Source: an uncultured bacterium
Lineage (GTDB): Bacteria; Krumholzibacteriota; Krumholzibacteriia; JACNKJ01
Length of the DNA: 64,000 nucleotides
Direction of reading: 5' to 3'
Assembly: GCA_963695095.1 (NCBI GenBank)
Contig: CAVOFT010000001.1
Span: 32,001 to 96,000 of the forward strand
The stretch's first letter is position 1. Every line of letters starts with the position of its first letter. The notes beneath the pieces were generated by a model. The model was not told the origin of the DNA. It worked only from the letters and a program-made list of their open reading frames with translations, and searched no databases. A program made the position numbers and the translations under genes. Shown piece by piece: positions 34,265 through 43,784 of this stretch.

Positions 34265-35950
34265 ATGACGCCCAAGCTGCTGCTCGCTCGCGAAGTCGTC
34301 CTCTGCGGCCCCGCCGGTCCGCTCGTCTTCGGCGGGCGCGCGCCCATCGTCACGCAGACGATGGCCGTGGCGGCCACCGAGCGCACCGAGGCAGTCTACG
34401 CGGAGATCTGCGAGCTGGCCGCGGCCGGCGCCGAGCTGGTGCGCGTGACCGTGCAGAGCCCGCGCATCGCCGAGAGCCTGGCGCCCCTGCGCGCGAAGCT
34501 GGACGCGGCGGGGGTCAAGGTGCCCCTGGTCGCCGACATCCACTTCAGCCCCGAGGCGGCGCTGCGCGCGGCGGATTTCGTCGAAAAAGTGCGCATCAAC
34601 CCGGGCAACTTCGCTGACAGCCGGCAGCCGCGCAGTTCGCCCTACACGGACGCCGAATACGCTACCGAACTGGCCAGAATCGCGGAGCGATTCTTGCCCC
34701 TTGTCGACGCCTGCCGCCGCCAGCGCCGCGTGCTGCGCATCGGCAGCAACCACGGCTCGCTTTCCCAGCGCATCCTCTCGCGCTACGGCGATACGCCGCT
34801 GGGCATGGTGGAGGCCGCGCTCGAGTACGTGCGCCTGGCCGAGGGCGCGGGCTATTCCGAGCTGGTGATTTCGATGAAGGCCAGCCACGTGGGCGTCATG
34901 GTGGAGGCCTACCGCCTGCTCGCGCTCGCCATGTTGCGCCGAGCCGAGGCGGGCGAGGGCGAGGTCTACCCCGTGCACCTGGGCGTCACCGAGGCGGGCG
35001 AGGGCGAGGACGCGCGCTTGAAGAGCTACATCGGCATGGGCGCCTTGCTCGAACTGGGCATCGGCGACACCGTGCGCGTTTCGCTCACCGAGAACGCGAT
35101 CCAGGAGCTGCCGGCGACCCGCGTGCTGGCCGGACGCTACTCGGATCGACGCACCCAGGCGGACCCCTGGACGGCGGCCGACCTCGCCGCCGAGTATGCC
35201 GAGCGCGAGAGCGACCCCGCGACCGGCGCGCTGCCGCGCGACGAGACCCTGGCCGGCCTGGATCCCGAAGCCCGGGCGCTGCACTTTCCCGTCACCCTGG
35301 TGCCGCAGCACTGGCAGCCCTCGATCCAGGAGCTGCTCGACCTCAAGTGGAAGCCCCTGCCGCCGGATCACGTGCGCATCGACGAGCTGGGGCGCCTGGG
35401 GCTCGTGATCGTGCCCCGCGGCATCAGCGCGCGTCTGGCCGAGCAGCGCCTCGAGGTGGAAGTCCGCGAGCGCACGCTGCTGGAGCTGGCCATCAGCGCG
35501 GGGGTCCCCCTCCTCGAGGGGCGCGCGCGCCGGGTGGCCGTGGAGGCCTCGACAGCGGAAGAAGCCGTGCGGGGCGTCGAGCTGGGCTACGCGCTCCTGC
35601 AGACCACGCGCCTGCGCATGAGCCGCGCGGACTTCATCAGTTGCCCCTCCTGCGGACGCACCCACTTCGACCTGCAAGCCGCCACCCGCCGCATCCGCGC
35701 GCGCTTCGGCCACCTGGAGGGCGTCAAGATCGCCATCATGGGCTGCGTGGTGAACGGCCCCGGCGAGATGGCCGACGCCGATTTCGGCTACGTGGGCGCC
35801 GCTCCGGGCCGCGTGGACCTCTACCTCGGCCGCGAGTGCCTGGAGCGCGGCATTCCCGAAGCCCAGGCCGTCGATCGCCTGCAGGCCCTGCTCGCCCTGC
35901 ACGGCGTCTGGCGCGAGTCGCCGGCTGCCGACCCGGAAGAGGGGCGATGA
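34265..35950 (+). CDS. ispG: (E)-4-hydroxy-3-methylbut-2-enyl-diphosphate synthase, long form
   Basis: PLVADIHF, VRINPGN, RIG.NHGSL, HLGVTEAG, GIGDT.RVSLT, CPSCGR, MGCVVNGPGE; TTGAGG-N17-TATCGT-N6-ATG upstream. Confidence 0.95.
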   Translation: MTPKLLLAREVVLCGPAGPLVFGGRAPIVTQTMAVAATERTEAVYAEICELAAAGAELVRVTVQSPRIAESLAPLRAKLDAAGVKVPLVADIHFSPEAALRAADFVEKVRINPGNFADSRQPRSSPYTDAEYATELARIAERFLPLVDACRRQRRVLRIGSNHGSLSQRILSRYGDTPLGMVEAALEYVRLAEGAGYSELVISMKASHVGVMVEAYRLLALAMLRRAEAGEGEVYPVHLGVTEAGEGEDARLKSYIGMGALLELGIGDTVRVSLTENAIQELPATRVLAGRYSDRRTQADPWTAADLAAEYAERESDPATGALPRDETLAGLDPEARALHFPVTLVPQHWQPSIQELLDLKWKPLPPDHVRIDELGRLGLVIVPRGISARLAEQRLEVEVRERTLLELAISAGVPLLEGRARRVAVEASTAEEAVRGVELGYALLQTTRLRMSRADFISCPSCGRTHFDLQAATRRIRARFGHLEGVKIAIMGCVVNGPGEMADADFGYVGAAPGRVDLYLGRECLERGIPEAQAVDRLQALLALHGVWRESPAADPEEGR

Positions 35951-36744
35951 GCGCGCTCGTCGTCGTGCTGCTCTGCCTGCCGATCGCCGTGCTGGCCTCG
36001 ATGGTGGGCATCGGCGGCGGCGTCTTCGTCGTGCCGCTCTGGCTGGCGGCCGGCTTCAGCTTCGTGGCCGCCAGCAGCGCTTCGCTGGTGATGACCACGG
36101 CCCTGGGCGCTTCGGCCGCCGTCGTCTACCTGCGCAAGGGCTTGGTCGAGCCGGCGCTCGTCTTCACCATCGGTCCGGCGGCCTGGCTGGTCAGCTTCGC
36201 CTCCGGCTTTCTCTCGGGGCATCTCGATGAACGGCTCTTGCGCGGCGCCTTCGCCTGCGTGCTGCTGGGCCTGTCCCTCTTGCTCTTCAAGCAGCCGCAG
36301 GCCAGGGGACAGGCGCCGGCAGCGACAGGCGGGCGCTGGTCGCTGCGCCGCGAGCGCGAGGGCGAGGTCTACTTCATCCCGCTCGTCGGCGCCGCCGGCG
36401 CTGGCGCCTTGGCCGGCCTCCTCGCTGGTCTCTTCGGCATCGGCGGCGGCGTGCTGATCGTGCCCATCCTCACCCTCGCCTTCCGCATTCCCATCCATAT
36501 CGCAGTGGCCTCGTCGTCCCTGTTGCTCGCCCTCACCTCGGTGTTCGGCGCGAGCGGGCACGCCCTGGCCGGCCACATCGACTGGCTGCCTGCACTGGCC
36601 GCGGCGGCCACGGCTGTGCTGGGCGCCCAGCTCGGCGCCCGCCTCACTTCGCGCCTGAAGCCGCACCACCTGCGGCGACTGCTCGCACTGGTGCTGTTCG
36701 CGGTGGCGCTCTGGATCGGAATCGGAGTGCTCAGGCAGGGCTAG
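35947..36744 (+). CDS. TauE/SafE (TSUP) family permease
   Basis: Two GIGGG..VP motifs, about 8 TMs; ATGA overlap with ispG. Confidence 0.9.
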   Translation: MSALVVVLLCLPIAVLASMVGIGGGVFVVPLWLAAGFSFVAASSASLVMTTALGASAAVVYLRKGLVEPALVFTIGPAAWLVSFASGFLSGHLDERLLRGAFACVLLGLSLLLFKQPQARGQAPAATGGRWSLRREREGEVYFIPLVGAAGAGALAGLLAGLFGIGGGVLIVPILTLAFRIPIHIAVASSSLLLALTSVFGASGHALAGHIDWLPALAAAATAVLGAQLGARLTSRLKPHHLRRLLALVLFAVALWIGIGVLRQG

Positions 36745-37043
36745 GTTCCGGACCGCGGCGGCCAGAGCCTCCCGCCGAGCAGTTGGCCCGCCACGGCGAA
36801 GACCAGCGTCAGCGCCACGAACCACAGCGAGAGACCTAGCAGGCGCCTGAGCACGAAGGCGAAGGGAATGGGGGCATGGATGGAGAGGATCCAGCTCCAG
36901 CTTCGCTTGCGCGCGTGGACGCGCCAGCCCCCGGCAGGCAAGTTGAGCGCGAAGGCGCTGAGGGCGAGCAGCCCGGCGCGAAGCATCAGCGGCAGCGAGC
37001 CCGGCGAGTGGATGGCCTGGGGCAGCGCGGCAAGGGCGCTCAC
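36741..37043 (-). CDS. small membrane hypothetical protein
   Basis: NLP.G.WR...K.S..W...IH.PIP..GQLLGG; GTGA overlap with selD stop. Confidence 0.65.
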   Translation of the reverse strand: MSALAALPQAIHSPGSLPLMLRAGLLALSAFALNLPAGGWRVHARKRSWSWILSIHAPIPFAFVLRRLLGLSLWFVALTLVFAVAGQLLGGRLWPPRSGT

Positions 37044-38134
37044 GCCAGCACCAGGGTCCCCGGCTGGCCGGACTCGACGCTGCCGATGAGCACCGCCTCG
37101 GCCACGCCTCCCGCCTGCAGCGCCGCGAGCAGGGCCTCGGCTTCGGCCTCCGCCACGGCGATGAGCAGGCCGCCGCTGGTCTGCGCGTCGCAGGCCAGCC
37201 ACAGCTGCGCCTCGCTCACCCCGGCGCCGCGCTTCAGGTGCGGCTCCACCGCCTTGCGGTTCGCGCGGCTGCCGCCGCAGAGCAGATCCTTCGCGATCAT
37301 CGCCAGGGCCTGCGGGTAGGCGGGCAGGGCCGCCGCTGACAGGTGGAAGCAGAGGCCCGCGCCGCGGGCCATCTCGAGCGCGTGGCCGGCCAGACCGTAG
37401 CCCGTGACGTCGGTGAGCGCGTGCACGCCGCGGGTGGCCGGCTCGCCGCGATCGGCGGCGCCGTCGGCGACGAAGGCGTCCAGCACTTCGGCTGCGCGCT
37501 TGTTGAGCCGCATCATGCCCGCCACGGCAGGGGCGACATCGTCATCGCCGAGCTCGCCCTTGCCGCGGCCGGCGAAGAGCGTGGCCGTGCCCAGGGGCTT
37601 GGTGAGGATGAGCCGGTCGCCGACCCGCGCGCCGGCGTTGGTGAGCACGCGGCGGGGGTGCACCAGGCCGGTCACGGCCAGGCCGTACTTCAGCTCGGCA
37701 TCCTTGATCGTGTGCCCGCCGGCCAGCGCCGCGCCCGCCTCGCGGATGGCCTCGTAGCCGCCCTCGAGGATGCGGGCCAGCTCGGCCTTGGGCAGCTGCG
37801 TCGGCGGGAAGCAGCAGATGTTCAGGGCGGTCACGGGCCGGCCGCCCATGGCATAGACGTCGCTCAGCGAATTGGCGGCGGCGATGCGGCCGAAGGTGAA
37901 GGGGTCCTCGACGATGGGCGTGATGAAGTCCAGGGTCTGCACGAGGGCCAGCTCGGGCGAGAGACGATAGACCCCGGCATCGTCCGAGGTGTCGAGGCCC
38001 ACGAGCAGGTTCTCGACACGCTCGGCCCGGATGTGGCCGATGATCTCGCGCAGGTCCTCCGGACCCATCTTGGCGCTTCAGCCGCCGGCCGAAGCGAAGT
38101 CCGTGAGGCTGCAGCGCAGCCCCTCGTCGCTCAC
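37040..38134 (-). CDS. selD: selenophosphate synthetase with selenocysteine (in-frame TGA, codon 19, 38078-38080)
   Basis: GTG with GGGAG RBS gives MSDEGLRCSLTDFASAGG-U-SAKMGP; DDAGVY, DFITP, ANSLSDVYAMGG, GGHT, TDVTGYGL.GH, QTSGGLL. Confidence 0.93.
38047..38077 (-). promoter_or_regulatory. candidate bacterial SECIS hairpin
   Basis: After UGA: GCGC..GGUCC-GGA-GGACC..GCGC, G-containing apical loop about 17 nt downstream. Confidence 0.6.
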
Positions 38135-38279: not shown

Positions 38280-38936
38280 ATGAGCATCCGGCAGGACAAG
38301 ATCCCCGCAGCCACGCTGCAGCGCCTGCCGGTCTACCTCTACCGCCTGCAGACGCTGCAGGCGGACGGTGTGGGCCGGGTGAGCAGCCGGACGCTGGCGG
38401 CCCAGTTGCGCATCAACTCCTCGCGCCTGAGGCAGGACTTCCACCACTTCGGCGGCTTCAGCCGCCCGGGCCAGGCCTACGAGGTGGCGCATCTCGTCGA
38501 GCGCCTGCGGGAGATCCTCGCCCTCGGCCAGGCGGTGGACTACGTGATCGCCGGCGCCGGCTACCTGGGCCAGGCGATCGCCGCCTATCCGCGCTTCGAG
38601 GAGGACGGCTTTCGCCTGGCCGGCATCTTCGACATCAATCCCAAGCTCATCGGCCTGCGCTTCCGCGGCGTGGCCGTGCAGGATCTCGAACTGCTGCCCG
38701 CGCTGGTGGGGCGACTCGGCGTCAAGCTCGGCGTGATCACGACCTCCCCCGAGGCGGCCCAGAGCGTCGCCGAGCGGATGGTGGCGGCCGGCATCACCGG
38801 CATCTGGAACTTCGCGCCGGTGGGCCTGCAGGTCCCCGAGGGCGTCACGCTGCAGGACGAGTTCCTCTCGGCCGGGCTGATGGCCCTGCACTACCGCATG
38901 CAGGAGGGCGAGCGCGGACCCGAGCGCCGGCGCTGA
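38280..38936 (+). CDS. rex: redox-sensing transcriptional repressor
   Basis: IP.AT..RLP.Y, SS..LA, R.DF..FG.F, GAG.LG.A, FD.NP..IG, IWNFAP. Confidence 0.9.
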   Translation: MSIRQDKIPAATLQRLPVYLYRLQTLQADGVGRVSSRTLAAQLRINSSRLRQDFHHFGGFSRPGQAYEVAHLVERLREILALGQAVDYVIAGAGYLGQAIAAYPRFEEDGFRLAGIFDINPKLIGLRFRGVAVQDLELLPALVGRLGVKLGVITTSPEAAQSVAERMVAAGITGIWNFAPVGLQVPEGVTLQDEFLSAGLMALHYRMQEGERGPERRR

Positions 38937-38969: not shown

Positions 38970-39059
38970 CCGCCTTGCTACCCTTTGTGTATCCTGGCCA
39001 CGGGAGGAGCGGAATCCGTTCCGCCTTCTAGCCTCCGCCCTGCGACGTGCTTCCCACGC
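38942..39059 (-). ncRNA. putative ~118-nt small RNA, GGA-rich
   Basis: TTGCCG-N17-TATACT (39093-39065, extended TG-n) upstream, terminator downstream, no convincing ORF, six GGA motifs. Confidence 0.6.
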
Positions 39060-39451
39060 AGACCAGTATAGCAGGCCCCTGCCGGCGCGGCAAGCCTTCC
39101 GATCGCGTATCGTGATGATGTGCAACGGGTTAGATTCCCAATTCGCCCTCGAAATGCCCCATCGGGGCCCATGGGGGCGAGGGCTTCGCCGGGGCGATCT
39201 GGGAGATCACGCCCACTTGCCCCTAGCGGGTCGCGCCGGGTGGAGCCGCTGCGGGAGGTGGCGGTTAAGCCGCTATTTGGCAATGGCTTGGGTGACTCAT
39301 TCGGCAGGGTCCGCGTGTCCTGCAACTCTGCGTCCGCTTCGATGTCCGCCTTGCGATTGAGACCCCATGGCCCGATAGTGCATAATCACGGCAGGTCGGA
39401 GCTCCTCTAGCAGCATCCTCCAGCTCGCCAGTGCCACGGGAGTGCGCATCG

Positions 39452-39943
39452 ATGTCCATTCGCGCGGGTTCAAGCACGGTTGCCCTCGCCGCCCTGGCGC
39501 TGTGGTTGGCGCTGTGGCCTGCAGCCGATGCGATCACCGGCGCCTCGAACACCGTGCTGGACCTGTCGTCCCCCGGCGCCGCCCCGACCGCCCATTGCGC
39601 CGACGCCCCGGACGAGCTTTCGGATTGCGCCAGCGCCCCCTCGTGCAGCCGGATGCTCGCAGCGAATCAGGGCGCCAAGGCCTGCGGCGACACGCGCTCC
39701 CGCTGTGCCACGGACCCGATCCCCGACAGCGAAGGCGATCTCGCTTGCGCGGGCACGAACGCTGCCCGCTGCGGCCAGTGCCAGTGCATCGGCGGCCTCG
39801 TGCTCTTCGCCGCCTCGCCGCCCCAGTTCAGCCCCGACCTCGAGCTGGTCGGCACGCTGAGCGCCGCCCGCTTCGACGAGGCGTCACGCTGCCCACGCCC
39901 GCTGCTCCGCCCGCCGATGGCAAATCTGTCGAACACCGCCTGA
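39452..39943 (+). CDS. Cys-rich exported protein with CxxC and C-terminal RPP motif (DUF2946/CruR/CutF-like leader candidate)
   Basis: GGGAG RBS, signal peptide ending ADA, 10 Cys including CGQCQC, ends PRPLLRPPMANLSNTA; TTGAGA-N18-CATAAT at 39357-39386. Confidence 0.65.
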   Translation: MSIRAGSSTVALAALALWLALWPAADAITGASNTVLDLSSPGAAPTAHCADAPDELSDCASAPSCSRMLAANQGAKACGDTRSRCATDPIPDSEGDLACAGTNAARCGQCQCIGGLVLFAASPPQFSPDLELVGTLSAARFDEASRCPRPLLRPPMANLSNTA

Positions 39944-39996
39944 AGCGCGTGCCCTGCACGCACCACCAACACCATTGCATCGGGAGATCGATCCAC

Positions 39997-40491
39997 ATGA
40001 ATCGGAAACGCATGATTGCGCTCGCGACGGCCCTCGCCGTCATGGTCTTCGCCGCGGCCCTCGCCGTGGCCGATGAGAAGCCCGCCCCGCCGGCGCCCGC
40101 CGCCGGCTGCAGCCCTGGCTGCACCGCCACTTGCACCGGGGCCGCGAAGACGGCCGCCGTGCCGGCGGCCGCGGCACCGGCAAGTTCCGGAAGCGAGGAG
40201 GCCACGCTCAAGGCTCACATGGAAGCCTGTGTCAAGGCCTGCGCCGCAGCCTGCAAGACCGGCGACGCCAAGGCTCACATGGAGGCCTGTGCCAAGGCCT
40301 GCGCCGAAGCCTGCAAGACCGGCGACACCAAGGCTCACATGGAGGCCTGTGCCAAGGCCTGCGCCGAAGCCTGCAAGACCGGCGATGCCAAGGCCCATGC
40401 CGCAGCTTGCGCCAAGGCCTGCGCCGCGGCCTGCAAGCCCGCCAAGCTCAGCCCGAAGGATCGGGGGGCCGGCTTGACGCCGAAGCGCTAG
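39997..40491 (+). CDS. exported Cys-rich repeat protein, putative metal-binding helical bundle
   Basis: GGGAG RBS, Sec-type signal peptide (AVA-D), four KAH(M/A)(E/A)AC(V/A)KACA(A/E)ACK repeats, 15 Cys. Confidence 0.8.
   Translation: MNRKRMIALATALAVMVFAAALAVADEKPAPPAPAAGCSPGCTATCTGAAKTAAVPAAAAPASSGSEEATLKAHMEACVKACAAACKTGDAKAHMEACAKACAEACKTGDTKAHMEACAKACAEACKTGDAKAHAAACAKACAAACKPAKLSPKDRGAGLTPKR
40209..40440 (+). repeat. 60-nt coding tandem repeat, about 3.8 copies
   Basis: aaggctcacatggaggcctgtgccaaggcctgcgccgaagcctgcaagaccggcgac recurs at exactly 60-nt period. Confidence 0.95.
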
Positions 40492-40513
40492 CCGGCGAGC
40501 TTGCTGCGAAGTC

Positions 40514-40549
40514 GAGGCGCCCGCGGGCTTCACCCGCGGGCGTCTTCTT
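40514..40549 (+). terminator. intrinsic terminator
   Basis: GGCGCCCGCGGG-CTTCA-CCCGCGGGCGTC then TTCTT. Confidence 0.75.
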
Positions 40550-40619
40550 GCCCTCGAGCGCCATTGAGCCGGCAGCGGGATCGCAAGTGCGGCGCCCCGC
40601 CGGCTGTCCGCGCGGATCG

Positions 40620-43085
40620 TCAGCGCGCCAGCACCAGCTTGCGGACCTGGCGCTCGCTGCCGGCGCGCAGCTCGCAGAAGTAGACGCCGCTGGGCAACTC
40701 GCGGCCGTCCGCCGCGCGGCCGTCCCAACTCAGTGCGTGCTCGCCCGCAGCGCGCTCGCCGTCAACGAGTACCCGCAGCAGGCGGCCGGCGGTGTCATGC
40801 ACGGCCAGGCGCACGTGCGCCACCGCCGGCAGGCGGTATTCGAGGCGCGTCGTCGGGTTGAAGGGATTCGGGTAGTTCGGCGCGAGGGTGAGAGCGCTTG
40901 CCGGCAGCTCGGGCACCCCGACGAAGACGCCGAACTCGGCGATCATCCAGTCGCTGAAGGCGGTCTGCTCGCCCACCGTGAGCCAGTTCGCCGCCTGGTC
41001 CACGGCGATCGGGTGCTTGGGCCCTTCCCAGGCCGCACCTCCCCAGCGCCAAAGCCCCAGGCTGTCCTCGTCGGCGCCGTTCAGCTCGTCGTCGAGGTAA
41101 CTCAGCGTGAGGTCGAAGAGCGCGCCCTCGCCCGTAGCGTCGATCGTGTAGTAGCGCTGCAGGCCGCCCGGCGCCAAGGGGTGTTGCTCGCCGGGATGCA
41201 CGAGCATGTCGATCGCGCTGAGCGTGCCCACTTCCGCCAGGTTGACCTTCGCCTTCACGCGGCCGCCGAAGAGGTATTCGCCGGCGCCGCCGATGGCACG
41301 CTGATGCCGGGTGCCCGTGTACTCGAAGGCGCCGATGTCCACGCACCAGCCGCCATTGGCGGGCACCGCGGTGGCCGGGCTGCCGGTCTCGATGCAGGGC
41401 GAGTCGTAGAGCAGGGTAAAATCGCGGGCCGCGGCGTCCGTGAAGCGCGGATCCCCGAGCTGCTCGTACTGCGAGGTGATGAGCGCGTTCGTGTTGCCGA
41501 TCGCGTTCCCGTGGAAAGCGTTGTAGCCGATGGCGAAGGCGATCGCCGCGTGAGCGCCGATGCCGTCACTGCCCGCGACGTCGTGGTCGCAGACGATGTT
41601 GTTCTCCACGTAGGAGGCCGCGCTCGTGCCCAGATAGATTCCGCTGCCGGCGCCTCCCTCGATGGGATCGAGGGTATTCGCGTTGCCGACGACGGTGTTG
41701 TTGCGCAGCGACGTGCGGTAGCCGCCGCCGGTGTAGATGCCCCCACCGTAGCCGACGTCCTCGGTGCTGGCGACGTTCCCCCAGACCACGTTGCGCTCGA
41801 TCGTATTGGTCGACTCGTAGGTAATGCCGCCACCGTACCCGATGCCGTGTACGCAGGCGGTGTTGCCGATGATGGCATTCTCCCGGAAGTCCGTGTTGCT
41901 GTCCGCGAGAAAGGCGCCGCCACCCGAGCCAGTGTGGCCGGCGCTGGTCGACGTCGAGGCCCGATTGTCTTCGATCCAGTTGCCGCGGATGACGGCACCG
42001 CTGCCCGTGCAGATACCGCCGCCGCTGCCGTTGCCGCGCACCGAGGACACGTTCCCCGTGATGCTGCAATCGAGGATCTGCACGCCGGTACCGTTGACCA
42101 GATTGATGCCCCCGCCGCTGCCCTGGCCGCCGCTGGCCTCCGCGGCGACGTTGTCCGTGATCGTGCAGTTCTGCACAACGGCGGTACTGGCATAGCAGTA
42201 GAGGCCGCCCCCGTTGCCGCCCACGCCCGAACTCAGGGTCGAGGCGGTGTTGCCCGCAATCTCGCACTCGCGGAGTTCGCCGCTGCCGCCGTAGTAGGCG
42301 ACGCCCCCGCCGCCGCCGACACGGGCCGTGGAGCCGCGGTTGCCGACGATCGCGCAGTCGTGGATCTCGGCATAGCCGCTGCTAGCAACGTACACGCCGC
42401 CACCGTAGGCGTACCAGGCGCTGGAGCCGGTATTGTTGTCGATCCGGCAGTGGCGGATCTCGGCCGCCGTGCCCGCGCCACGCACGCTGATGCCGCCGCC
42501 GTTGCCGTTGAAGGTGTGGCCGGCCAGGTTGCCAGTGATCCGGCAGCGCTCCACGATGGGATCGGCGCCGCCGTTCACGTCCAGCCCGCCACCGTAGCCG
42601 TAGTTGGGATCGCCCTCGCTGGTGCCGTCGCCGCCGGTGAGTGTCAGGCCGCGCACGATCGTCACCGAGCTCACCGCGGCGCCGCTGATCGTCATCACGC
42701 GGCAGGTGGCGTCGGCCTGCACGATGCACTGGCTCGAGTCCGGCAGCGCCGCGTCCCAGCTCGCATGCGTGCCGTCGTCCGAGCCGAGGCAGCGATCGCT
42801 GCTCAGGACGACGGCCTCGCCGACCGGGTAGAGGCCGTACTTGACCAGGATGGTGTCGCCGGCCGCCGAGGCGGCGATGGCCGCCGCGAGCGTTTGCTTG
42901 GCCGTGGCCCAGGCGAGGCCGTCGCCGCTGTTGTCCGGCTGCGCAGCGTCGGCGAACCAGGTGGCCGCGCGGGCTTCAGCCCCGCCCCCGGGGGCCGGCC
43001 CGAGCGCCAGTACAGTGGCCAGGAGTGCCGCGGCATGGACCTGCCAGGCTGTGATCCCGAGCGGAGAACGACGATGGAAGCCCAT
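40620..43085 (-). CDS. secreted right-handed beta-helix (GGG/GGA..N repeat) protein with FlgD-Ig/T9SS-type C-terminal domain
   Basis: DG..WATA, repeated GGG(I/V)..C.I.GN.A, DP.F..SPCI..DIGAFE, NYPNPFNP..WDGR..SGVYF. Confidence 0.9.
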   Translation of the reverse strand: MGFHRRSPLGITAWQVHAAALLATVLALGPAPGGGAEARAATWFADAAQPDNSGDGLAWATAKQTLAAAIAASAAGDTILVKYGLYPVGEAVVLSSDRCLGSDDGTHASWDAALPDSSQCIVQADATCRVMTISGAAVSSVTIVRGLTLTGGDGTSEGDPNYGYGGGLDVNGGADPIVERCRITGNLAGHTFNGNGGGISVRGAGTAAEIRHCRIDNNTGSSAWYAYGGGVYVASSGYAEIHDCAIVGNRGSTARVGGGGGVAYYGGSGELRECEIAGNTASTLSSGVGGNGGGLYCYASTAVVQNCTITDNVAAEASGGQGSGGGINLVNGTGVQILDCSITGNVSSVRGNGSGGGICTGSGAVIRGNWIEDNRASTSTSAGHTGSGGGAFLADSNTDFRENAIIGNTACVHGIGYGGGITYESTNTIERNVVWGNVASTEDVGYGGGIYTGGGYRTSLRNNTVVGNANTLDPIEGGAGSGIYLGTSAASYVENNIVCDHDVAGSDGIGAHAAIAFAIGYNAFHGNAIGNTNALITSQYEQLGDPRFTDAAARDFTLLYDSPCIETGSPATAVPANGGWCVDIGAFEYTGTRHQRAIGGAGEYLFGGRVKAKVNLAEVGTLSAIDMLVHPGEQHPLAPGGLQRYYTIDATGEGALFDLTLSYLDDELNGADEDSLGLWRWGGAAWEGPKHPIAVDQAANWLTVGEQTAFSDWMIAEFGVFVGVPELPASALTLAPNYPNPFNPTTRLEYRLPAVAHVRLAVHDTAGRLLRVLVDGERAAGEHALSWDGRAADGRELPSGVYFCELRAGSERQVRKLVLAR

Positions 43086-43784
43086 GATCCCGTCCCTTCC
43101 CAAGCCGGTTGCGAGGGCCGGCCGGCAACGCAGCTCAGCGCCGGCAGTGCCCGCGGACAAGGAGCCAGGGAGTAGGAACCTCGGGTGGCGGCGCCGTCAC
43201 AGCCAGTGGCGGCGAAATCGCGCCCTGGAGGGTGCGGGCGCCAGCCGATCAGGGCCGTTCGGGCGGCTGTTCGTCCAGGCGGAGGATGTGCGCCCGCGCC
43301 TACCTGTTGATCAGCCAATCGTAGCGCTTGGCGAAGCGCGTGAGTCCGTTCACGAAGGGTCGGGCCAGTCCGCGGGGCTGCAAGACCAGCACTGCCGCAT
43401 GGAACGTGCCCGCGCGGAGCGCTTGATCGGAGACCCGGCTTCATCGCGGGAGGCGATGCGCACGTTCATCAGGGTATGGGCCGCGCCACGAACGATGTGC
43501 TTCTCCATGGCGCGGGCGCGGGCGAAGTCGCGGCTGGTGGCGTGGGTCCGGTGCATCTCGAGCGGATTGCCGTGGCTGGCTTCCTGGAAGATCTCGTGGA
43601 GTGGGCAAACCACGATGACGTGCGCAAGGCGCTCCCGGGTGCGCCGAATGACCGCGTGGACTTCCCTCGGCTTCAAGTGCTCGCGGGGCCGCAGCTCGGC
43701 GAGTTGCTACCCGAGGATCTAGTCGCGGCAGGCAGCGCTGGTGCCATGTGGCTGCGCCGCGCGCCGGCGCCGGCGGCGCCAGTT

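Follow-up and report, generated by a model that had tools for sequence, protein, structure and literature searches.

A candidate pause-controlled leader gene with cysteine and proline motifs upstream of an exported Cys-rich repeat protein in uncultured Krumholzibacteriota

What is the role of a small gene having an export-signal-like start, a cysteine motif and a proline-rich end, when it stands directly before the gene for an exported Cys-rich repeat protein? This question is raised by a locus on the + strand of a 64,000-nucleotide (nt) stretch of contig CAVOFT010000001.1, from an uncultured bacterium of the phylum Krumholzibacteriota; the whole stretch is here called the window, and all positions given are those of the full stretch. 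The first gene of the pair (gene 1) encodes a leader-like protein and the second (gene 2) follows it after 53 nt. An earlier reading made from the letters alone, here called the sequence-only reading, had suggested that gene 1 is a metal-sensing, ribosome-stalling leader of the DUF2946 type, similar to CruR of Bordetella pertussis and CutF of Rhodobacter capsulatus. The general idea of a CutF- or CruR-like leader placed before an unusual Cys-rich protein was well supported by the comparative anatomy of related loci, as described below. The interpretation that we favor, held with evenly divided confidence, is that gene 1 acts in cis as a pause-controlled leader and thereby controls a new thiol-rich binder of metal(loid)s in the periplasm.

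The arrangement of the two genes was found to be conserved throughout the loci compared. At 23 distinct loci, being the window, 18 further loci and four distant ones (among them L017, which runs off its contig, and L036, which has masked bases, were partly readable), the leader was in each case followed by an open reading frame (ORF) on the same strand with a signal-peptide-like start and a Cys-rich, repetitive body, so that the gene pair presupposed by the sequence-only reading was indeed conserved at 23 of 23. The gap between leader and gene 2 spanned 50–76 nt in the 18 loci measured. The genes around the pair differed from locus to locus, with only L011 having the synteny of the window. In the window itself, the two genes, the CGQCQC motif, the PRPLLRPP-MANLSNTA end and the hairpin GCGTGC-CCT-GCACGC were all present where they had been described, as were the base strings proposed to pair with each other, i.e. 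CCGATG-g-CAA (39914–39923) with TTGCATCGG (39975–39983) and CTCC (39905–39908) with GGAG (39983–39986).

Comparing gene 1 with Pfam and NCBIfam matched no family. A word-indexed search with gene 1 found 25 clusters, and an exhaustive HMMER search of 1.84 billion representative proteins gave 28 family representatives at E <= 0.001, none of these 28 being a longer or fused form. Within the phylum, the family was present in 19 of 208 genomes, one of the matches (G003) being doubtful since it has stop codons. The protein encoded in the window starts with MSIRAGSSTVALAALALWLALWPAADA, contains 10 Cys in total, and has a basic and hydrophobic N-terminus that ends A-x-D-A (AADA), in agreement, as judged by inspection, with an export signal. 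Invariance or near-invariance within the family was confined to W..WP..D, the CxxC, G115 and S-R-x-x-x-P-x-x-x-P-P. Of these, W18, W22, P23, D26, C107 and C110 were invariant in 25 aligned sequences and P150, P154 and P155 in 38 family sequences, with C99, G115 and R146 as further conserved positions in the two alignments. The segment between the signal and the CxxC was hypervariable in sequence and ranged from 47 to 130 residues across the family, yet the segment from CxxC to PP had zero gaps in the 25 aligned sequences. Counted from the second Cys, the last Pro followed after 45 residues in 29 of the 38 members and after 44 in two; the Cys pair was located at the same place in all 38, the remaining seven having a CxC-type pair or one shifted by a single residue. 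The spacing of CxxC and PP motif was accordingly kept in the homologues, a point that the sequence-only reading had proposed to check.

The C-terminal motif of the 38 members was PPVPPP in 22, PLLRPP in seven, PPLRPP, PLVRPP and PPVRPP in two each, and PLIRPP, PLVPPP and PPEHPP in one each. The tail following PP comprised eight residues in 25 members, four in 11, nine in one and two in one, and its sequence was not conserved. Since the codons of the PP motif varied between relatives at synonymous sites with the residues being unchanged, selection evidently acts on the peptide. Using AlphaFold2 on the 38 sequences, only an N-terminal helix was predicted (residues 4–33; predicted local distance difference test score, pLDDT, 77–95), and gene 1 residues 49–119 scored below 50. 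This pattern of conservation fits a leader peptide. In a protein-language-model search, unnamed clusters were nearest to gene 1 and the nearest named families were CzcI, DUF6660 and DUF6769, all at 0.92, which we regard as a lead only. The codons of the motif were also considered on their own account. In 11 of 15 PPxPPP-type loci (19 loci compared), CCT encodes the middle Pro of the final PPP, giving an anti-Shine-Dalgarno core CCUCC, and in four genes of the window CCT makes up only 3 of 61 proline codons. As a signal in its own right, the rare CCU codon was rejected: over the whole motif the enrichment was at most mild, among related loci, with CCT at 14 of 87 proline codons inside the motif vs 21 of 190 elsewhere in the leaders.

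The assignment of gene 1 to DUF2946 had to be abandoned. CruR (Bp2923) carries this domain (DUF2946/PF11162) and a RAPP arrest motif, and 45 intervening residues, within one or two, separate CXXC and arrest motif in >2000 such proteins (PMC9426467). The Pfam model of DUF2946 (cut-off 23.7 bits) gave no match to gene 1 at E <= 10, none at E <= 1 in family members (25 + 16), and none at E <= 1 across the whole genome of the window; no Pfam match at all was obtained in the 41 members scanned. The same model found true members in six of 201 genomes of the phylum. Comparing a profile of the 38-sequence family using hhalign with five DUF2946 proteins of the same class, a shallow profile of five sequences, gave a probability of 0.27% and E = 0.23 over 14 columns at the CxxC. 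RAPP, which is invariant in those five proteins, was found in none of the 38 family members, and the rigid spacer of the gene 1 family has 41 intervening residues, four fewer than that of CruR. Because one genome, G131, has a DUF2946 gene (L020) alongside one of the gene 1 family (L029), these are two separate families. The true DUF2946 genes of the same class (L018–L023, from G170, G180, G131, G190 and G042) encode an N-terminal hydrophobic stretch, a CxxC and a RAPP located 2–11 residues from the end (L018 runs off its contig). Judged by the features used for CutF-like proteins, PP stood 2–9 residues short of the C-terminus in all 38 members and the intergenic lengths given above were those of a CutF-like leader; with its 163 amino acids, gene 1 exceeds the length filter (<150 amino acids), below which 15 of the 38 members fall.

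Turning to gene 2, it was clear that the downstream gene encodes an unusual Cys-repeat protein, as had been noted from the sequence. Its product has a signal-peptide-like start (MNRKRMIALATALAVMVFAAALAVA/DEKP) of Sec type without twin arginine, and four 20-residue repeats of the type KAHMEACAKACAEACKTGD. The mature protein of the window has 15 Cys, with 10 CxxxC and no CxxC, and all 17 orthologues measured had 10–21% Cys, 4–12 CxxxC and no CxxC in their mature part. Helices were predicted at residues 66–86, 91–106, 111–126 and 131–146 (pLDDT 64–75, with a mean of 57 for the whole, low-confidence model), each carrying Cys at i, i+4 and i+8, a spacing that in the predicted model would give one thiol-lined helix face. 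No relative was found among known families: gene 2 together with 16 orthologues gave nothing above cut-off in Pfam, NCBIfam returned no relative of gene 2, the best match by hmmsearch among Protein Data Bank (PDB) sequences was an unrelated Tim10 protein (E = 0.042), and Foldseek with the gene 2 model gave nothing at E <= 0.001, the top row being 3u8v, a small metal-binding protein, at E = 1.6, which carries no weight. The word search was uninformative because of the low complexity of the sequence, with none of 8000 candidates scored, the query included, and the language-model search gave low recognition (best score 0.82). Gene 2-type ORFs ranged from about 85 to 269 amino acids across loci, with an Ala/Lys-rich and repetitive body. 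The near-identity at DNA level of the middle repeat copies in the window suggests a recent expansion or contraction. The number and unit of the repeats vary by species among the orthologues (L016, L029, L031, L035). Gene 2 probably encodes a periplasmic thiolate-rich metal(loid) binder.

For the window we infer export, pausing, a ligand, a direction of control and a coupling step, which may be joined in the following way. Gene 1 would be translated while its own N-terminus is being exported. Once the ribosome is positioned at the proline motif (PRPLLRPP, or PPVPPP in most relatives), the CxxC and its hydrophobic stretch would be 45 residues back, which is about long enough for the chain to cross the ribosomal tunnel and arrive at the translocon. 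The fate of the Cys outside, whether they capture a thiophilic metal or metalloid or fail to join in disulfides, would then set the length of the pause on the prolines, and the pause would set the amount of gene 2 product made. The most likely coupling would be that the paused ribosome sits on leader codons which would pair, when free, with gene 2's Shine-Dalgarno (SD) sequence. A precedent is CutF, the leader of cutFOG, in which DUF2946, an export signal, a Cys motif and a PPP motif are combined (PMC9973294, 10.1101/2025.02.05.636593). PPP-type motifs are known strong stallers and the functional element of CutF, the pausing of which is proposed to melt a stem-loop over the cutO SD (10.1101/2025.02.05.636593). 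The CutF and CruR proteins themselves are reported to escape detection or to be quickly degraded.

We analyzed the intergenic RNA of the 18 loci with regards to such a coupling. A hairpin soon after the leader stop codon was found in 18 of 18 loci, with differing stem sequences (GCGUGC/GCACGC, GCGGGC/GCCCGC, GGCGCGUCC/GGAUGCGCC and others), and in 10 of them it ranked in the best 5% vs shuffles. A joint MAFFT alignment of the 18 regions with RNAalifold returned no pairs because the hairpins became misaligned, and was replaced by per-locus hairpin scans and group-wise alignments. In one of these groups (group A), double changes were seen in three of nine hairpin stem pairs and in four of 22 predicted pairs overall. 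A duplex between SD and leader was in the best 5% vs dinucleotide shuffles in seven of 18 loci and vs synonymous recoding in five of 18, where about one of 18 would be expected by chance in each test and the loci are related, not independent. The short-tail group displayed an 11-bp helix of the tail/stop region with the SD, having two compensatory pairs, in another group the CCG-CCG-GU codons of PPV paired with the CCGGAGG of the SD, and in L002, from the genus of the window, GGAUCGGCUCCC pairs with GGGAGAUCGAUCC. The 5′ arms of these duplexes were all placed near the PP codons, between about −30 and +20 nt of them, and in 11 of 18 loci the SD was almost wholly paired when about 140 nt were folded (unpaired probability <= 0.01). 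Compensatory base pairs in homologues, which the sequence-only reading had asked for, were accordingly found for the hairpin in group A and for the SD helix in the short-tail group, but did not extend to an SD helix in the group of the window. The stop codon moves by 12–15 nt between lineages, and the distances of the hairpin to the Pro codons and to the SD persist. The post-stop hairpin could be a pause hairpin, a 5′ stabilizer after processing or a nucleation element. A SECIS-like (selenocysteine insertion sequence) hairpin serving selenocysteine insertion at the TGA, in view of an AIR-synthase-type, possibly selD, gene 1.4 kb upstream, was rejected, as three of 19 leaders end with TAG and keep the hairpin; such recoding is further disfavored by a non-conserved reading frame to the next stop.

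The RNA of the window itself gave a less favorable picture. The fold of 39895–40005 (111 nt) had a minimum free energy (MFE) of −26.3 kcal/mol vs a shuffle mean of −29.1 (z = +0.96), with 162 of 200 shuffles being equal or better. The long-range helix of 39914–39923 with 39975–39983, by which the SD was thought to be sequestered, did not survive this analysis: at −15.8 kcal/mol it had a pair probability of 0.01–0.02, i.e. about 2% of the ensemble, and the GGG of the SD is predicted to pair mostly (0.68) with CCC at 39898–39900, within Arg-Pro codons that lie upstream of RPP. When about 140 nt of the window were folded, its SD was unpaired with a probability of 0.36. The inner hairpin (39947–39961) that had been proposed was reproduced with a pair probability of 0.98–1.0; in the per-locus hairpin scan, six of 60 shuffles did as well as this hairpin. 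Rfam gave no matches at E <= 1 over 39000–40700.

Several findings weigh against our interpretation of gene 1 and should be considered together. In the window, the SD-leader duplex did not exceed chance expectation, being matched in 186 of 300 shuffles and in 218 of 400 synonymous recodings, and the group of four loci to which the window belongs shares the inner hairpin alone in RNAalifold. The proposal that a stalled ribosome frees the SD of gene 2 also fared poorly upon masking of a 30-nt ribosome footprint at PP, which changed the unpaired probability of the SD from 0.45 to 0.41 in the window, gave a gain of at least 0.3 in only one of 18 loci, and raised the mean from 0.15 to 0.23. Because equilibrium folding of GC-rich RNA finds other partners, this masking neither proves nor kills the model. 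The fixed distance between PP and hairpin can be explained by descent, with a stop codon gained in a longer tail. At 163 amino acids and with 10 Cys, gene 1 exceeds the usual size of a leader and might serve a purpose of its own, and a sequence relationship to DUF2946 was not detected in the 41 members scanned or by hhalign. Finally, a conserved metal-homeostasis neighbor of the pair was not found in the loci compared, which makes the ligand a guess.

With these points in mind, a different role for gene 1 should be weighed. Its product may be no regulator but an ordinary protein, exported or membrane-associated, that works together with the gene 2 product (as an anchor, chaperone or redox partner); its proline-rich C-terminus would then be a binding motif and the intergenic hairpin an mRNA stability or processing element. 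The strict co-occurrence of the two genes would agree with this, as would the Cys-richness that gene 1 shares with gene 2, its length above the 150-amino-acid limit used for CutF-like proteins (PMC9973294), the position of the hairpin, which in 17 of 18 loci precedes the SD by 16–23 nt, as a 5′ stabilizer would, and the lack of a significant SD switch in the RNA of the window. We nonetheless consider a partner protein unlikely, because its predicted fold would be limited to an N-terminal helix and its middle hypervariable while a gap-free spacer joins two short motifs, because PP stays 2–9 residues from the end in every member, and because the better-than-chance anti-SD pairing in relatives is centered on the PP codons. 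If gene 1 instead is a leader, as we propose, its signal may be envelope thiol-redox or secretion state rather than metal: disulfide formation or translocation would pull the chain and end the pause, and a reducing or jammed envelope would prolong it. Disulfides and translocon pulling are invoked in the model for CutF (10.1101/2025.02.05.636593), the distance between a hydrophobic stretch and PP is fixed, the window and L011 both have a gene for a Rex-type redox repressor upstream, and the pair has no linked metal genes. A metal signal, however, fits better with gene 2 resembling a thiolate metal binder with CxxxC arrays and with the arsR, arsenate-reductase-like phosphatase and methyltransferase genes directly upstream on the same strand in L010, and the Rex neighbor is not conserved in other loci, wherefore we find a redox or secretion sensor improbable.

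A leader that pauses as proposed could also act on transcription, with the paused ribosome blocking Rho from a C-rich, G-poor site and the hairpin pausing RNA polymerase, so that the pause would determine if transcription runs on into gene 2. CruR, which is reported to be poorly structured, works in this manner, its pausing blocking Rho (PMC9426467). In line with this possibility, C exceeded G over the leader 3′ end and the intergenic region in the window, with a peak of +22% around 39933, and all 18 loci had an excess of +8 to +26% around PP; downstream of the hairpin comes a C/A-rich linker, and the SD-masking model fares poorly in silico, as described above. The G-poor linker is, however, only about 20 nt, part of the C excess stems from proline codons, and several relatives have clear, better-than-chance SD-sequestering helices. 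We therefore regard Rho attenuation as quite unlikely and SD unmasking as the more likely coupling of pause and gene 2 expression.

The features of the locus are compiled in Table 1. The claim that the pair has its own promoter and terminator held up for the sigma-70-like site, both hexamers of which (TTGAGA and CATAAT) are retained in the same-genus locus L002, and for the presence of a stable 3′ hairpin, although a strict terminator scan did not call the hairpin at 40514–40549. The sequence GGGAGATCGATC at the SD of gene 2 was invariant in three same-genus loci.

Table 1. Features of the leader/Cys-rich protein locus in the window, with spacings around the post-stop hairpin in relatives
Feature	Position or distance	Strand	Remarks
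Sigma-70-like promoter site, TTGAGA-18 nt-CATAAT	39357..39386	+	10/12 matches; 0 in 50 shuffles
GGGAG, likely SD of gene 1	39438..39442	+	9 nt 5′ of ATG
Gene 1, leader-like ORF, 163 amino acids, unnamed family (P0001)	39452..39943	+	
Export-signal-like N-terminus, residues 1–27, ...LALWLALWPAADA	39452..39532	+	By inspection
Cys motif C107-G-Q-C110-Q-C112, then hydrophobic stretch IGGLVLFAA	39770..39787	+	
PRPLLRPP, candidate arrest motif	39893..39916	+	Family pattern P-x-[LVIE]-[RP]-P-P
8-codon tail MANLSNTA and TGA stop	39917..39943	+	
Hairpin GCGUGC-CCU-GCACGC	39947..39961	+	Begins 3 nt past gene 1 stop codon
C/A-rich, G-poor linker ACCACCAACACCAUUGCAUC	39962..39981	+	Similar C/A-rich linkers in relatives
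GGGAG, SD of gene 2	39982..39986	+	10 nt 5′ of ATG
Gene 2, predicted exported Cys-rich helical repeat protein, 164 amino acids (P0002)	39997..40491	+	
60-nt tandem repeat, 4.0 copies, 89% matches	40200..40441	+	Encodes four predicted Cys-bearing helices
Terminator-like GC-rich hairpin, then UUCUUG	40514..40549	+	Fold of 40492–40560 = −38.4 kcal/mol
PP codon end to hairpin	23–37 nt		27–33 nt in 15/18 loci
Stop codon to hairpin	−1 to 17 nt		Longer gaps in short-tailed leaders
Hairpin to SD	16–40 nt		16–23 nt in 17/18 loci

Upstream of the pair in the window, we found genes for a TauE/SafE-type exporter (35950–36744, +), a member of the AIR-synthase family that is possibly a selenophosphate synthetase (selD; 37040–38068, −) and a Rex-type redox repressor (38301–38936, +), the latter two also being located upstream in L011. 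Convergent with the pair is a gene for an 846-residue right-handed beta-helix protein with a C-terminal FlgD_ig domain (40620–43160, −), and proteins with a similar C-terminal domain flank the pair in L008, L009 and L011. In L010, genes for an ArsR-type regulator, a low-molecular-weight phosphatase (arsenate-reductase-like) and an S-adenosylmethionine (SAM) methyltransferase (L010:601–2446, +) directly precede the leader at L010:2482–3186 on the same strand, a context that hints at arsenic or another thiophilic metalloid as a possible ligand in that organism. Among public sequencing runs, only contigs with small shares matched the locus. A 151-nt contig of a sediment metatranscriptome run (X2) covers 39915–40065 at 94% identity, thereby spanning the gene 1 end, the intergenic region and the gene 2 start, with its sole hairpin change located in the loop (39955 T>C). 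Another contig covers 40207–40357; both contigs derive from a relative, with possible DNA carry-over and with strand and ends unreadable.

If the pause is real, the CutF/CruR principle of sensing outside the cytoplasm by means of a nascent exported chain would reach an uncultured phylum as well as a family having no detectable sequence relationship to DUF2946, and the layout of Cys motif, fixed spacer and proline arrest would be a general, possibly convergent solution. It would also provide the first functional handle on gene 2, maybe as a new kind of periplasmic metal(loid) buffer. More tentatively, and as a possibility that we would not yet rely upon, the pair may be a self-contained two-gene ‘sense-and-sponge’ module, i.e. 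a nascent-chain thiol sensor that is independent of DUF2946 and has converged on the same ruler (CxxC, about 41–45 residues, proline arrest), with the Pro codons in many lineages acting as anti-SD, and that gates a new class of periplasmic, rapidly expanding CxxxC helical-repeat proteins soaking up thiophilic metals or metalloids (Cu(I), Ag, Cd, As(III)) in anaerobic sediment bacteria. Since the module of about 1.2 kb carries promoter-like and terminator-like sites and moves between contexts, it can be tested as is in a laboratory host. The novelty lies in the lineage, in the family with its PPVPPP/xRPP motif and in the family of target proteins; in the literature on CutF-like proteins, arrest peptides, metallothioneins and copper in Krumholzibacteria, we found nothing on this module.

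It remains to compare the pair with known systems. Csp1 is an exported protein, as gene 2 is likewise predicted to be. The copper storage proteins Csp1 and Csp3 are Cys-lined four-helix bundles (PMC9484137). Gene 2 is alike only in principle, with its four predicted helices having Cys at i, i+4 and i+8. In contrast to the Csp proteins, gene 2 has no sequence or fold match, its helices are much shorter (about 16–21 residues), its repeat number and length vary freely between species, its signal is of Sec type without twin arginine, and its metal binding is putative.

For gene 1, the closest likeness is to CutF, with which it shares a Sec-type N-terminus, a Cys motif expected to be periplasmic, a proline repeat close to the C-terminal end, a stem-loop in a short intergenic region, an exported and plausibly metal-related downstream gene, and the proposed logic whereby a pause unmasks the SD of the next gene. 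It differs from CutF in having no detectable sequence kinship and a CxxC where CutF has CxxxC, in that the hairpin of the gene 1 family does not include the SD and mostly ends 16–23 nt before it, and in that the target of CutF is a multicopper oxidase, whereas here it is a Cys-rich repeat protein. With CruR the likenesses are a CXXC with a C-terminal arrest-type motif ending with PP, the rigid spacer between them, the export signal, a poorly structured protein and a C>G stretch at the 3′ end; differences are RAPP vs xRPP or PPVPPP, 45 vs 41 intervening residues, the Pfam model not being matched, an intergenic region of 162 nt vs 53 nt, and a TonB-dependent transporter as the target of CruR. 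The SecM-secA system of E. coli, finally, is alike in having an exported leader with a translocon-modulated C-terminal arrest, where the paused ribosome opens an SD-hiding structure (10.1101/2025.02.05.636593), and it differs in using another arrest sequence without a cysteine sensor and in having the secretion motor as its target.

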